From: Patescibacteria group bacterium
GTDB taxonomy: Bacteria > Patescibacteriota > Microgenomatia > UBA1400 > PJMF01
NCBI GenBank assembly: GCA_019454415.1
Contig: JACFOI010000007.1
Coordinates: 1 to 46,163, forward strand
Reading direction: 5' to 3'
Length of the DNA: 46,163 nt
Below, one piece after another: positions 6,186 through 9,993 of the stretch. Both the position numbers and the translations under genes were made by a program. How positions within the stretch are numbered: position 1 is the stretch's first letter; each line of letters starts with the position of its first letter. The notes beneath the pieces were generated by a model. That model was not told the DNA's origin. It did not search any database and saw only the letters and a list, made by a program, of their open reading frames with translations.

Positions 6186-8009
6186 TTAGAGTGCTTTATC
6201 CTCGATCTCTTGGCCTAGTTTTTCGATGAAGTTTTGAAGCTGTAGGAGGCCGAGATCTTGGTTGCCGCGATGGCGGACACTAAGCATCTTATCCTCGACT
6301 TCTTGTTTGCCCAGAATAATCATGTATGGCACTTTCTCCTTCTCCGCCCGACGGATCCGTTTCTGCATACTCTCAGCCTCATTCCAGTTCTCTACCCGGA
6401 TTTTGGCCTGACGCAGCGCAGTGGAGACTTCCGCAGCATACTGATGCTGGTCTTCTGAGATCGGAATGACCACAGCTTGCACAGGCGCCAGCCACAACGG
6501 GAAGGCTCCCCCAAACTTCTCGATTAAGAACGCCATGGTCCGCTCAACTGCCCCAATCGAAGATCGGTGAACCACAATCGGCTCTTCTTCTTTACCTTCC
6601 TCATTGATGTAGCTGAGCTGGAAGCGTTTGGGCATCACAAAGTCATACTGGACGGTGAAGGCAGTCTCTTCTTTGCCATGCACGTTCTTCATCTGGACGT
6701 CAATCTTGGGTCCATAGAAGGCTGCTTCATCTTCAGCTTCAAAGTACATTGAACCACGTTGCTGTAACACTTGTCGTAGCACATTCTCCGCAAAGTCCCA
6801 GGCAGCGTCGTCTTTGTAGTACTTTTTGTCGTCCTGGCGATTGCCGAGTGACAGTCGGAAACGGTAGTCTTCACCGGGCTGGAGACCCCACAGCTTTAAA
6901 ACGTACTCGATCAGATCAATCACGCCGTTAATTTCCTCGACTGCTTGGCTCTTGCGGGCGATGATGTGGGCATCTGCCAAACAAAACGTCCGGACGCGCA
7001 TCAGACCAGTCAGCTCGCCGGACTTCTCATAGCGATACAGCTGGGCCAGCTCGGCTAAGCGCATCGGCAGCTCTTTATAGCTGCGCGGCTGTGATTTGTA
7101 GATCTCAAAATGATGTGGACATGTCATCGGCCGGAGCATGAACTCCTCGTCGTCAATCGTGATCGGCGCGTACATGGTGTCTTTGTAGTACGGGTAGTGT
7201 CCGGAAGTACGGTAGAGATCGAGCAAGGCGATGTCAGGGGTGTTGACGTGCAGATAGCCGCGGGCCAACTCTTCATCTACCACAAAGCGCTCGAGCTCAC
7301 GGCGGACTGTGGCGCCTTTGGGCGTCCAGAGCGGCAATCCCTTGCCCACCAAGTCAGAGAAGGTAAACAGCCCGAGTTCTGCACCTAGTTTGCGGTGATC
7401 ATTCTGACGTGCCTTTTCCAGTTGTGCCAGATAAGCATCGAGCTCTTCTTGAGAATTGAATGCTGTCCCATAGATCCGCGTCAGCATCTTATTTTTCTCG
7501 TCCCCATGCCAGTAGGCACCGGCGACCGAGAGCAGCTTGAATGCTTTGATGGCGCCGGTAGAGTCGGCGTGAGGTCCACCACAGAGGTCGACCATCGAAC
7601 CTTTCTCTCCGGGCTGACCCGTCCAGTAGATCGTGACTTTCTCACCGCGTTGCTCGATTTCGTCGACCCACTCGAGCTTGTACGGATTATTGGCAAATAG
7701 TTTCCGTGCTTCGTCTACAGAAACTTCCTGTCGGATCATTGGCAAGTTGCGGTTGATGATCTCCCGCATGCGCTTTTCAATCTTGGGAAAGTTTGCTTCA
7801 GAAATAACTACTTTGACTTCAGGAGAAGGGGTGCTGTCAAAGTCACAGTAAAAGCCGTCTTCGGTAGCCGGACCCATGGCAAGCTGGATTTCAGGATACA
7901 GCTCCTTGATGGCCTGGTGCAGAACGTGCTCGGTAGTATGCCGCAGTGCCCAAAGCTGCTGTTCGTCGACTGACTTATGGCTGAGCGCCTCGTCAAGTTT
8001 TTGTGACAT
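6186..8009 (-). CDS. thrS: Threonyl-tRNA synthetase (no N-terminal TGS domain)
   Basis: RHTTEH, DLCGGPH, GAYWHGDEKNKMLTRIYG, DHRKLG, LRPMTCPHH, YRYEKSGEL.GLMRVR, AFYGPKID, FPLWLAPVQ. Confidence 0.99.
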   Translation of the reverse strand: MSQKLDEALSHKSVDEQQLWALRHTTEHVLHQAIKELYPEIQLAMGPATEDGFYCDFDSTPSPEVKVVISEANFPKIEKRMREIINRNLPMIRQEVSVDEARKLFANNPYKLEWVDEIEQRGEKVTIYWTGQPGEKGSMVDLCGGPHADSTGAIKAFKLLSVAGAYWHGDEKNKMLTRIYGTAFNSQEELDAYLAQLEKARQNDHRKLGAELGLFTFSDLVGKGLPLWTPKGATVRRELERFVVDEELARGYLHVNTPDIALLDLYRTSGHYPYYKDTMYAPITIDDEEFMLRPMTCPHHFEIYKSQPRSYKELPMRLAELAQLYRYEKSGELTGLMRVRTFCLADAHIIARKSQAVEEINGVIDLIEYVLKLWGLQPGEDYRFRLSLGNRQDDKKYYKDDAAWDFAENVLRQVLQQRGSMYFEAEDEAAFYGPKIDVQMKNVHGKEETAFTVQYDFVMPKRFQLSYINEEGKEEEPIVVHRSSIGAVERTMAFLIEKFGGAFPLWLAPVQAVVIPISEDQHQYAAEVSTALRQAKIRVENWNEAESMQKRIRRAEKEKVPYMIILGKQEVEDKMLSVRHRGNQDLGLLQLQNFIEKLGQEIEDKAL

Positions 8010-8034
8010 ACGTTCCTTCCTGCCTCTTGCAGTT

Positions 8035-8337
8035 CTATTGTACTTGATTTCTTCCTATTCCTAACACCTGGCCGATTGTTTCCACTTTATGCCGGACTTC
8101 CTCAGCATAGTCACTATTTAGTGCCATGACTGCCTGAATGTGAGCCCACATCATCAAGCGGGTTGGCTCAGTAAGGCGAGCAATTTGGCGCTGAGCATCT
8201 TCAGCAGAGACGCCAAGCTCTTGGATACTCTCAACATAGACGCCTTTAGATAAAAGGAAAAGTTGGTACAACAGCCACTTGGCTTGGAGGCGCTCTTTGT
8301 CTTTGGATAGTACTGGTTTAGCCACTTCAACTGACAT
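8035..8337 (-). CDS. Hypothetical protein (100 aa), first gene after the Thr attenuator
   Basis: ATG with a purine-rich upstream (GAAGAGAG); fills the gap between the terminator and thrS; no recognisable motif. Confidence 0.7.
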   Translation of the reverse strand: MSVEVAKPVLSKDKERLQAKWLLYQLFLLSKGVYVESIQELGVSAEDAQRQIARLTEPTRLMMWAHIQAVMALNSDYAEEVRHKVETIGQVLGIGRNQVQ

Positions 8338-8365
8338 ACTCTCTTCACTGCATCGTTTTGCCCAT

Positions 8366-8389
8366 AAAAAACCCCTCTAGAGAGGGGTT
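8366..8389 (-). terminator. Attenuator terminator (segments 3:4)
   Basis: AACCCCTC-TCTA-GAGGGG-TTTTTT on the minus strand, upstream of the thrS operon. Confidence 0.9.
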
Positions 8390-8413
8390 ACGATGCGCAG
8401 GTTTTTGCTTACA

Positions 8414-8479
8414 TCAAACCCCACTCCATTCAGTGGTGGTAACGGTTTGAATAGGACAAAGCATATGGTTGGTAAACAC
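8414..8479 (-). CDS. Thr-rich leader peptide, (MFTNH)MLCPIQTVTTTEWSGV*
   Basis: ATG 8464 or in-frame GTG 8479 to TGA 8414-8416; codons ACC GTT ACC ACC ACT; overlaps the attenuator hairpins. Too short for the ORF track. Confidence 0.85.
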   Translation of the reverse strand: MFTNHMLCPIQTVTTTEWSGV

Positions 8480-8487
8480 GAGGACAG

Positions 8488-8497
8488 ATTATACAAT
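8488..8497. promoter_or_regulatory. Overlapping divergent -10 boxes (TATAAT minus 8488-8493; TACAAT plus 8492-8497)
   Basis: Sequence ATTATACAAT; each box lies 8 nt from a start codon (GTG 8479, ATG 8506). Confidence 0.7.
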
Positions 8498-8505
8498 ACT
8501 TTGCC

Positions 8506-9993
8506 ATGGATGGAAGCCAGGTGCGTACTTGGGGAGTGAGTTTGCTGCTTGTAGCGGTAGTGCTGTGGGCTGGTGTGGGTGCTTTTTTGACTGATCCCTA
8601 CTTTCCGTGGACCACGGTGCGAGCTCCTTACAGGACATCTATCAAGAATGATGGCACTATTGAACTCGTAGAAGTACAACCACCTGTTTTCCGGCGCGAC
8701 TGGTTCTCGCGACTGACCGCCTATGTCAGGGCCGGCAGTCGGATTTTAATCTATCGTTGGATACCAGAAAGAAAACTGGGACACTCCACCGCCGAAGTAC
8801 TGGCAGTACTCCACGACCAGCGTTTCCAACCCGATAAGCCCTATGTCATCACCGGAGCCCACTACTCTGATCTCTATGTTCGTAACCTCGGAATTTTCTT
8901 CAATGAGCTTACTAATGAGCAGCTCGAACAGTCTCCTCAGGACCTTCAAAACCGCCAACGTCTGGCACTACAAACAGTTGCTCTCGACCTGGCTTTTCTA
9001 CGGGCAAACGGCCGGCTAGTCACGACGATTGCTCCTTTAGGCGGTAGCTCTTTCACAGGAATAAATATCTACACTGAGCCGTCCGACTCACTGTATGCCG
9101 TCTTATTTACTCTCAATAAACTCAAGCAGGCTGAACCCACTCGTACAGCCGCCAACTCACTACTGGCTGACAATAAAGAAGTCCTGCAGCGGGAGCTTCT
9201 CCGCTACCTGCAGACTGTCATTGATCCACGCACCCTGACTATCCGCAACGACATCCATCTCTCCGGAGCTCGTGATGGAGTCAAACGAACGGCCTCGTTT
9301 TACGATACCGTGATCGCTTGGCAAACAGTCCGCTTGGCAGACCAGCTTCAACTGATCCCTTTGCAAGATTGGCCCGCAGAGTTGCAGCCGCTGCTGGATG
9401 GAGCAGGCTGGAAACAAACAATCATTGACCGCTACTGGAATGCAGACAAGGGGTACTTCATCAATGACCTAAGCGAGAAAGCTGGAGGGAAGGCAGATGA
9501 TTTTGGAAGTGATAGCTTGGTTGTTCTTTCCACTGGTTTCCTGGATCCTGGCCAAGAACAGGACCGCCAAAAACTTGAGCGGATCGTGGAACACATCCAA
9601 CAAAACACCCTCGATCGCCCCTTCCCTCTCAAGTACTCCACGACCAACGGCCAGAATCGGATGCACTGGACGGTCAAGTACTTTGCTCCGGGATACATGG
9701 GGAAAGGAATCTGGAGTCACTGGGGAGTCGAGTATGTAAAGACACTTCTGGCACTTAGCCAGACGTCCGATCCGGCAGAATGTCTTCACCTTGAAGATGC
9801 CCGGGAGTTTTTGGATTTGTATGCACAGAATATCGCCGCCTTCGGCGGCTATCCTGAGCTCTACGGTCAGGATGGTAAACCCTACCAAACTCTTGCACTG
9901 CGCTCGGTCCTCCATTCCGGTTGGGTCGTTAACTATGAAGCAGCCCATGCGGCGCTAGAGTCGGACTTGAGGACTACTAGCTGTCAATTTTGA
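8506..9993 (+). CDS. Membrane-anchored/secreted six-hairpin glycosidase-like protein
   Basis: N-terminal TM/signal; YVRN, IIDRYWNADKGYF, GIWSHWG and GGYPELY segments resemble (alpha/alpha)6 glycoside hydrolases. Family call tentative. Confidence 0.55.
   Translation: MDGSQVRTWGVSLLLVAVVLWAGVGAFLTDPYFPWTTVRAPYRTSIKNDGTIELVEVQPPVFRRDWFSRLTAYVRAGSRILIYRWIPERKLGHSTAEVLAVLHDQRFQPDKPYVITGAHYSDLYVRNLGIFFNELTNEQLEQSPQDLQNRQRLALQTVALDLAFLRANGRLVTTIAPLGGSSFTGINIYTEPSDSLYAVLFTLNKLKQAEPTRTAANSLLADNKEVLQRELLRYLQTVIDPRTLTIRNDIHLSGARDGVKRTASFYDTVIAWQTVRLADQLQLIPLQDWPAELQPLLDGAGWKQTIIDRYWNADKGYFINDLSEKAGGKADDFGSDSLVVLSTGFLDPGQEQDRQKLERIVEHIQQNTLDRPFPLKYSTTNGQNRMHWTVKYFAPGYMGKGIWSHWGVEYVKTLLALSQTSDPAECLHLEDAREFLDLYAQNIAAFGGYPELYGQDGKPYQTLALRSVLHSGWVVNYEAAHAALESDLRTTSCQF

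Follow-up and report, generated by a model that had tools for sequence, protein, structure and literature searches.

How a synthetase gene could follow the supply of its amino acid is the question raised by a locus in a member of the Patescibacteria. The bacteria of this group, also called the candidate phyla radiation (CPR), have small genomes with few recognised regulators, and almost none of them has been cultivated. The window analysed here is a stretch of 46,163 nucleotides (nt; contig JACFOI010000007.1 of assembly GCA_019454415.1, contig C32 of the genome called G000 below, which comprises 1.08 Mb in 40 contigs). Its minus strand encodes thrS, a threonine--tRNA ligase of 607 amino acids (aa; 6186..8009; Pfam PF00587 6.7e-36, PF03129 2.7e-21, PF07973 3.9e-13). 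Membership in the CPR was borne out, the nearest named ThrS being that of "Patescibacteria group bacterium UBA924" with 86% identity, followed by ThrS of metagenome-assembled genomes labelled as WWE3, Gottesman-, Roizman-, Collier-, and Parcubacteria. Upstream of thrS, a first-pass annotation had proposed a threonine-sensing leader-peptide attenuator. This proposal is well supported: all parts are present, the arrangement recurs before thrS in other genomes, and the fold models switch as expected. We consider it highly probable that the element is a ribosome-mediated leader-peptide transcription attenuator, which senses charged tRNA-Thr and controls read-through into an open reading frame (ORF) of 100 aa and thrS. 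This reading is based on the sequence elements and their conservation, on the specificity for Thr codons among the relatives, and on the alternative folds that the models predict.

Elements of the thrS leader

On the minus strand a TATAAT hexamer is followed by an open frame ending in TGA, a 24-nt spacer, a terminator hairpin, the 100-aa ORF, and thrS. All elements named in the first-pass annotation were found on this strand at their given places, and every coordinate and pairing was correct. The -10 hexamer TATAAT (P1; 8488..8493), which is preceded by TTG, is the predicted promoter of the leader transcript, and the motif is kept as TTGTATAAT or TTGTATACT in the close relatives G002, G017, L141, and L144 (G002 and G017 are the same loci as L143 and L145, respectively). 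The upstream ORF (uORF) had been drawn from ATG 8464-8462 to TGA 8416-8414; this frame exists and reads MLCPIQTVTTTEWSGV*, but the likelier start is an in-frame GTG, which makes the ATG internal. The predicted leader-peptide ORF thus comprises 21 codons including five Thr codons from GTG 8479-8477 to TGA 8416-8414 (8414..8479), and encodes MFTNHMLCPIQTVTTTEWSGV* (with M written for the GTG start). Four of the Thr are concentrated in five codons, ACC GTT ACC ACC ACT at 8446-8432, exactly as first described; in the long ORFs of G000 Thr accounts for 6.1% of the codons. This cluster (8432..8446) would provide the regulatory codons and is at the same time segment 1, which pairs with 8425-8418. That 5/5 Thr codons in the G000 leader are of the ACY type is not significant alone (chance of about 0.1 given 64% ACY genome-wide).

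Three mutually exclusive helices had been proposed, and all three are present in the sequence, two of them in modified form. For helix 1:2, TCAAACC (8450-8444) and GGTTTGA (8420-8414) are found, but RNAfold skips this outer pairing, for which a 7-nt bulge would be needed, and favours ACC/GGU plus CCACU/AGUGG, 8440-8432 pairing with 8425-8418. For the antiterminator 2:3, GGAGTGGGGTT (8427-8417) is indeed complementary to AACCCCTCTCT (8389-8379; 10/11, one G-U), but the predicted helix is longer and interrupted. It extends over 8378..8428 with 20 pairs and -24.8 kcal/mol, and consists of the 5' strand 8428-8411 (segment 2), an inner hairpin (8408-8395), and the 3' strand 8394-8378 (segment 3). 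Segment 2 ends at the stop codon, and segment 3 is the 5' arm of the terminator plus its loop. The predicted intrinsic terminator (8366..8389) agrees with the earlier description in all its parts, namely AACCCCTC (8389-8382), the loop TCTA (8381-8378), GAGGGGTT (8377-8370), and six T at 8371-8366. Its 8-bp stem is G+C-rich, the hairpin has -12.4 kcal/mol, and it is also detected by a consensus scan with 8 pairs. The hairpin is not the terminator of an upstream gene because the gene on the other side (8506-9993, plus strand) is divergent from the leader. Taken as a whole, the leader RNA (8338-8485) has a folding energy of -44.9 kcal/mol compared to -35.1 +/- 3.8 kcal/mol for shuffled sequences (z -2.6), and none of 200 shuffles was as good.

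Alternative folds and proposed mechanism

According to the proposed mechanism, transcription would begin a few bases after TATAAT (8493-8488), placing GTG 8479 at or next to the 5' end of a leaderless mRNA, and a ribosome would translate the 21-codon frame. With plentiful Thr-tRNA the ribosome would reach the TGA (8416-8414) and cover segment 2 (8428-8411), the terminator (8389-8370 plus the U tract) would form, and transcription would end near 8366. With scarce Thr-tRNA the ribosome would stall on the ACC/ACT cluster (8446-8432) and leave segment 2 free to pair with 8394-8378, which would sequester the 5' arm of the terminator and allow the RNA polymerase to continue. If no ribosome is present, the Thr codons (segment 1) would pair with segment 2, and the terminator would form as well. 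The leader would thus most likely raise the level of the threonyl-tRNA synthetase (ThrRS) when charged tRNA-Thr is short. We infer where transcription starts, that ribosomes translate the frame and stall in it, that transcription terminates, and that the system responds to threonine.

The fold models used a ribosome footprint of 13 nt from the first base of the A site, a value assumed from other bacteria, and stalling was represented by masking the first 46 nt, which places the A site at the cluster's first Thr codon. As free RNA at full length, the G000 leader forms helix 1:2, a small hairpin, and the terminator (-31.7 kcal/mol). In the stalled model the interrupted 20-pair helix 8428-8411/8394-8378 appears with about -25 to -27 kcal/mol and uses up the 5' arm of the terminator, and if the mask is moved to the stop codon, the terminator alone remains. 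The same two-state fold with an extended antiterminator is predicted for L141, L143, L144, and L145.

For a broader comparison across the related leaders described below, 27 were modelled with the RNA truncated before segment 4, omitting L095 and two leaders whose hairpins overlap the stop codon. The 5' arm of the terminator is more than 50% paired in 26-27 of the 27 leaders when the ribosome is on the first or second Thr codon, in 6/27 when it is at the stop codon, and in 11/27 as free RNA; in G000 the arm pairing is 0.86 stalled and 0.09 at the stop. The mean arm pairing stalled and at the stop is 0.87 and 0.35, compared to 0.61 and 0.44 after dinucleotide shuffling of the intervening sequence (Wilcoxon 1.6e-6). 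Over this set of related loci, the best 2:3 duplexes are better than those of shuffled sequences in aggregate (Fisher 1.4e-7), with 7/27 leaders at p <= 0.05. In addition, the upstream regions pair better with their own terminator arm (-13.45 versus -10.99 kcal/mol on average; permutation p 5e-5), the median rank of the own arm being 4 of 27 and that of G000 being 2.

Probable start codon and leaderless initiation

The frame most likely starts at GTG 8479 rather than at ATG 8464, judging from spacing and conservation. The GTG is in frame and 8 nt after the -10 hexamer, the same GTG at 8 nt is found in G000, G002, L141, and L144, and the G002 leader does not contain any in-frame ATG. Across the related leaders, 23/29 have a canonical in-frame start 6-12 nt after the best -10-like hexamer. 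This spacing is a general feature of the G000 genome, in which ATGs opening ORFs of at least 100 aa peak 6-9 nt after TATAAT (14, 11, 7, and 6 cases) while the other distances from 0 to 40 nt have 0-3 such ATGs each, and the same peak at 6-9 nt is seen after TACAAT and TATACT. Leaderless mRNAs are therefore probably common in G000, because the ATGs of long ORFs pile up at this distance from -10 hexamers. With a leaderless GTG start, the objection that there is no Shine-Dalgarno sequence before the frame falls away. The gltX, valS, serS, argS, and probable metG genes of G000 also have leaderless spacing.

Threonine leaders in other Patescibacteria

The thrS loci were collected from 41 related genomes, a species-representative collection, and metagenomes, and the 700 nt upstream of thrS were scanned for frames that contain at least four Thr in six codons and reach a stop in no more than 90 nt, with a terminator hairpin no further than 110 nt away. 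Loci with less than 300 nt of upstream sequence and duplicates were removed before counting. A Thr-rich frame with a terminator precedes thrS in 30/101 non-duplicate Patescibacteria loci, one of which (L095) proved to be a T-box. Scanning these 101 regions as their reverse complement gave 1/101, two 730-nt windows inside thrS gave 0/101 each, and any other amino acid looked for in the same upstream regions reached at most 5/101. Further metagenome loci were positive in 9/48 cases, and their reverse complements in 0/48. A chance origin of the leader is rejected by these reverse-complement, intragenic, and cross-synthetase controls. The check suggested earlier, a search for Thr-rich uORFs across the upstream regions of Patescibacteria thrS genes, has thus been carried out, and the uORFs recur with different sequences and the same logic.

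At the nucleotide level, a search with the 168-nt leader DNA in 61 related genomes yielded nothing beyond its own copy, terminator-like fragments, and, in front of thrS in G002, two partial matches. By this comparison the leader is too divergent for nucleotide homology, and it is the architecture and not the sequence that is kept beyond the nearest relatives. The related leaders contain four to nine Thr codons with a median of five Thr in 15 codons, and ACC is used 72, ACT 56, ACA 21, and ACG 4 times. The peptides (for example MLRNSHTATTQTTTTTTEVGF, MRVKNIFTTTTITLGPVGE, MKKFFNYTTTSTTSP, and MQNIRFTTTTTTIPAGE) are alike only in the Thr run and in the codons overlapping segment 2. So little similarity outside the Thr run, together with the use of all four Thr codons, is what would be expected if selection acts on the codons and not on the peptide. 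In nearly all leaders segment 2 is located at the stop codon, beginning between -18 and +16 nt from it. On the ThrS tree, the closest five ThrS relatives (G000, L141, G002, L144, and G017) form a clade with a support of 96, and all of them have a leader.

Leaders before other synthetase genes

In G000, 18 synthetase-family places were examined. In front of five genes (thrS, cysS, leuS, trpS, and tyrS) a start codon follows a -10 hexamer after exactly 8 nt and opens a short frame with cognate codons, which is followed by a terminator. The predicted cysS leader (C5:8375-8466, plus strand) encodes MTTTRTLSCCRFVQ* with two adjacent Cys codons, the leuS leader (C21:13170-13259, plus strand) MNLCVAQLSLLLPLC* with six Leu, three of them consecutive, the trpS leader (C9:13508-13404, minus strand) MTRTTARSSWWASLK* with two adjacent Trp codons, and the tyrS leader (C25:6605-6497, minus strand) MHKISVCASYYYSSPTLGE* with three consecutive Tyr. 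A run of N is present between the latter leader and its gene. The switch between stalling and stop codon could be modelled in four of the five leaders, all but that of cysS (0.63/0.63). In the relatives, Trp-Trp frames precede trpS in 5/30 loci, four of which are convincing, and Leu-rich frames precede leuS in 8/22 loci, six of which are convincing. As controls, Thr-rich frames were found in 0/30 loci before trpS and 0/22 before leuS, and the cross-controls gave 3/22 and 1/30. The thrS leader therefore appears to be one of a broader group of leaders that precede synthetase genes in this lineage.

A genome-wide scan for terminators combined with homopolymer-rich short frames returned 44 candidates, most of which are inside coding regions or without evident meaning. 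Of six downstream proteins checked among those candidates, four are not synthetases (one DUF3160, one NAGPA, and two without family).

Several other synthetase genes of G000 showed features of their own. Upstream of aspS (L223, C22:4800-5120) there is a TTG frame (MNIFRDDLD*) with three Asp together with a T-box-like motif and a long terminator, which is ambiguous. For glyS (L232, C22:1-1776) the T-box match was partial (27.8 bits, E 0.012), and ileS (L231, C16) has a T-box-like motif and a terminator about 300 nt upstream. A tRNA-like stretch was seen by eye between the ileS motif and the gene; an Rfam scan of L231 at E <= 0.1 reported no tRNA. Concerning the proteins, AspRS (L223, C22:5120-6991) has an aminoacyl-tRNA editing domain at its C-terminus (PF04073, residues 493-612), and TyrRS (L229, C25:4309-6210) has an N-terminal extension of about 240 aa before the tyrS equivalog match.

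T-box-like leaders and the question of direct tRNA sensing

Other Patescibacteria have a different kind of leader before the same gene. T-box matches were found directly before thrS in seven of 12 other Patescibacteria loci tested (L035, L043, L059, L064, L092, L105, and L108). These are full-model matches of about 140-210 nt with 30-44 bits, compared to an Rfam cut-off of 93, and E-values of 1.6e-6 to 7e-3. They needed an E-value threshold, and at gathering thresholds Rfam reported only tRNAs in 20 thrS loci. Being short and below the Rfam cut-off, such T-box-like leaders would be missed by standard annotation. The matches imply that elsewhere in the Patescibacteria thrS is controlled by attenuation that follows the charging of tRNA. 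Of the 139 loci on the ThrS tree, the leader is present in 38 and a T-box-like motif (a label that here denotes the short motif alone) in 44, 57 have neither, and these states are interleaved. The leader state requires at least 19 changes on well-supported branches, and the next neighbours of the G000 clade are one locus with neither and one T-box-like locus.

The presence of T-box-like leaders before thrS in related genomes, together with the fact that the Escherichia coli ThrRS binds its own leader, could suggest that the G000 leader as well senses tRNA-Thr or ThrRS directly and without translation, either in a T-box-like manner, the ACN run providing the specifiers, or like the operator to which ThrRS binds in E. 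coli. We regard this as very improbable. In the region 7900-8700 no Rfam family was found at E < 0.1, the best being istR (19.8 bits, E 0.18), and neither the Rfam Thr leader nor the T-box (RF00230) matched at E <= 10. A start at leaderless spacing and a stop abutting segment 2 are always found in the frame of the ACN run, whose third codon positions vary over all four Thr codons. In addition, the same design is found with Trp, Tyr, Leu, and Cys codons before the matching synthetase genes.

A probable second promoter and the genes around the leader

The attenuator had been placed before the thrS operon. While thrS was confirmed downstream, the gene directly following the attenuator is the 100-aa ORF (8035..8337, minus strand), which is lineage-specific and of unassigned function. 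It has no Pfam family and no informative homologue, and a large protein collection contained just two protein clusters for it. A homologue with 57% identity is found at the same place in L141/L142; G002 does not have the ORF, and the distance from the end of its leader to thrS is 59 nt.

A promoter-like -10 motif TACAAT (P2; 8037..8042, minus strand) is located 27 nt before the ATG of thrS and is followed by a small hairpin (CTGC...GCAG) and the Shine-Dalgarno-like GGAAGGA before thrS (8010-8042). Many relatives, among them G001, in which the leader is missing, carry the extended motif (A)GTACAAT(A) 20-40 nt upstream of thrS, and by the spacing to ATGs TACAAT behaves as a -10 element in G000. 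P2 is thus probably a second promoter, and if it is active, the attenuator would modulate thrS expression on top of a basal level. The motif (A)GTACAAT(A) also precedes cysS and trpS in G000, and GTACAATAG occurs 11 times in this genome, six times within 70 nt of the start of a long ORF. In the thrS locus of G001 (L221, G001:C21:12300-13600), by eye, a tRNA gene lies on the opposite strand upstream of thrS and only the TACAAT motif is left; the ThrS of G001 was matched in two pieces.

With P2 in place it would be conceivable that the leader makes a small transcript of its own, as a micropeptide gene or small RNA with a separate terminator, and that thrS is transcribed only from the proximal TACAAT and not regulated by the leader. 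The conservation of this TACAAT here and in many relatives, among them G001 with no leader, and the 100-aa ORF between the terminator and thrS in G000 speak for such an arrangement. However, the element stays with thrS in divergent genomes and is specific for Thr, and cognate-codon frames are found before four other synthetase genes of the same genome. The peptide is not conserved outside the Thr run and the codons overlapping segment 2, and a free-standing small RNA would have no use for an antiterminator overlapping its terminator. Contigs from RNA libraries offer a weak hint in the same direction. The libraries were studied as Logan contigs only, and contigs from two runs of two studies, X2 (8312-8462) and X4 (8208-8452), cross the terminator, although they may derive from DNA, since one RNA run holds genome-length contigs and DNA carry-over is possible. 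X3 (8433-9000) crosses both predicted start sites; the uncovered parts of X2-X4 are uninformative, and transcript ends are not readable from these contigs. In X1 the window stretch is inside a 50.9-kb contig with a depth of 92, and this run resembles DNA or the material from which the assembly was made. Overall, an independent transcript is highly improbable, and the attenuator remains our preferred interpretation.

Downstream of thrS there are genes for a PD-(D/E)XK nuclease and, further on, infC (IF3), as assigned by Pfam. On the other side, the divergent ORF of 495 aa (ATG 8506, plus strand) has no Pfam family. A plus-strand TACAAT (8492-8497), 8 nt before this ATG, overlaps the minus-strand TATAAT by 2 nt, and 8488-8508 is thus predicted to comprise back-to-back divergent leaderless promoters.

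Comparison with known systems

The thrS leader resembles the enterobacterial trpL, thrL, hisL, and pheM leaders in having a short frame, clustered regulatory codons, the segments 1:2, 2:3, and 3:4, and an intrinsic terminator, and pheM before pheST likewise controls a synthetase gene. It differs from them in having no Rfam or sequence relationship, in the leaderless frame with a probable GTG start, and in the overlap of segment 2 with the end of the frame. The thrS gene of Escherichia coli itself is, unlike thrS here, controlled by a translational operator. With the T-box (RF00230) before thrS of the Firmicutes it shares the gene, the signal (charging of tRNA-Thr), and the terminator/antiterminator output, whereas the sensor is a direct tRNA-RNA contact in the T-box and would be a translating ribosome here.

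Synthetase genes under leader-peptide control have been described before, namely pheST in E. coli and trpS and leuS in Streptomyces (PMC1262725). PMC8079986 lists leaderless leader peptides before thrS, alaS, leuS, and trpS in Streptomyces lividans, which are thus similar to the frames described here in being leaderless, short, rich in cognate codons, and located before aminoacyl-tRNA synthetase genes including thrS. According to that paper, the S. lividans thrL before thrS contains just two Thr and lacks a clear U-rich terminator, whereas the Patescibacteria leader has five Thr and combines a canonical terminator with a strong antiterminator. The two belong to different phyla, are likened by architecture, and are not expected to be similar in sequence. 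In mycobacteria, leaderless AUG/GUG polycysteine short ORFs at several loci are amino-acid-specific sensors with a shared logic that has been termed "ribulon" (10.1101/834739), and according to the same source the stalled ribosome there unmasks a ribosome-binding site, which is a translational mechanism, whereas the output here would be an intrinsic terminator. This mycobacterial precedent is the reason to consider that a ribosome stalled in the thrS leader controls downstream translation or Rho-dependent polarity and not intrinsic termination. Since a canonical G+C-rich hairpin with T6 follows the frame both here and in the related leaders, such a mechanism is extremely unlikely, and control of intrinsic termination by the leader peptide is retained. 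A switch from T-box to leader-peptide control has been described at hisS (PMC2965389).

The first-pass annotation knew of no such attenuator in CPR bacteria, and full-text searches likewise found no description of a leader-peptide attenuator or a T-box for CPR/Patescibacteria, but leader peptides before synthetase genes, among them thrS, have already been published for Streptomyces. The few papers matched in these searches, such as PMC12641178, appear to employ the terms with other meanings. The predicted-attenuator tables of PMC2965389 and PMC8079986 may hold further thrS cases. The mechanism is classical, and it is noted here for the first time for Patescibacteria as far as the searched literature shows.

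Points against the attenuator

Several observations weigh against this interpretation. G001, which belongs to the same genus, does not have the leader, and 57/139 ThrS loci have neither leader nor T-box-like motif. P2 lies between the terminator and thrS, so that part of the thrS transcription may bypass the attenuator. The frame does not have a Shine-Dalgarno sequence, and the leaderless GTG start is an assumption, as is the ribosome footprint of the models. G000 alone is not significant (p = 0.106 for the 2:3 duplex and p = 0.066 for stall minus stop), and the aggregate p-values overstate the evidence because the loci are related and non-independent. Covariation in the formal sense is weak: an RNAalifold check of five close sequences, as had been suggested, yielded 14 pairs of which two are compensatory, and was based on an imperfect MAFFT alignment with a misaligned terminator. 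The truncated free RNA of G000 favours the antiterminator over helix 1:2 (0.86), and the "protector" helix therefore relies on the order of folding.

Implications for the Patescibacteria

The analysis supplies genome annotation with dozens of unannotated short ORFs and attenuators. The putative sensor of tRNA-Thr charging and its sisters for Cys, Leu, Trp, and Tyr can be read from the sequence, and they predict that synthetase levels follow the supply of amino acids. They further predict that translation is closely coupled to transcription, and that initiation is leaderless, also at GTG. The frequent exchange of leader peptides and T-boxes at a single gene would provide a natural series for studying the evolution of such switches. 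It seems somewhat more probable to us than the contrary that the Patescibacteria run a lineage-wide ribulon, in which leaderless cognate-codon frames with antiterminator/terminator switches control at least five synthetase genes in G000 and, across the group, have repeatedly been exchanged with short T-box-like leaders. If this is true, tRNA charging sensed at synthetase genes through tight coupling of transcription and translation would form a main layer of regulation in bacteria that are reduced and scavenge their amino acids.

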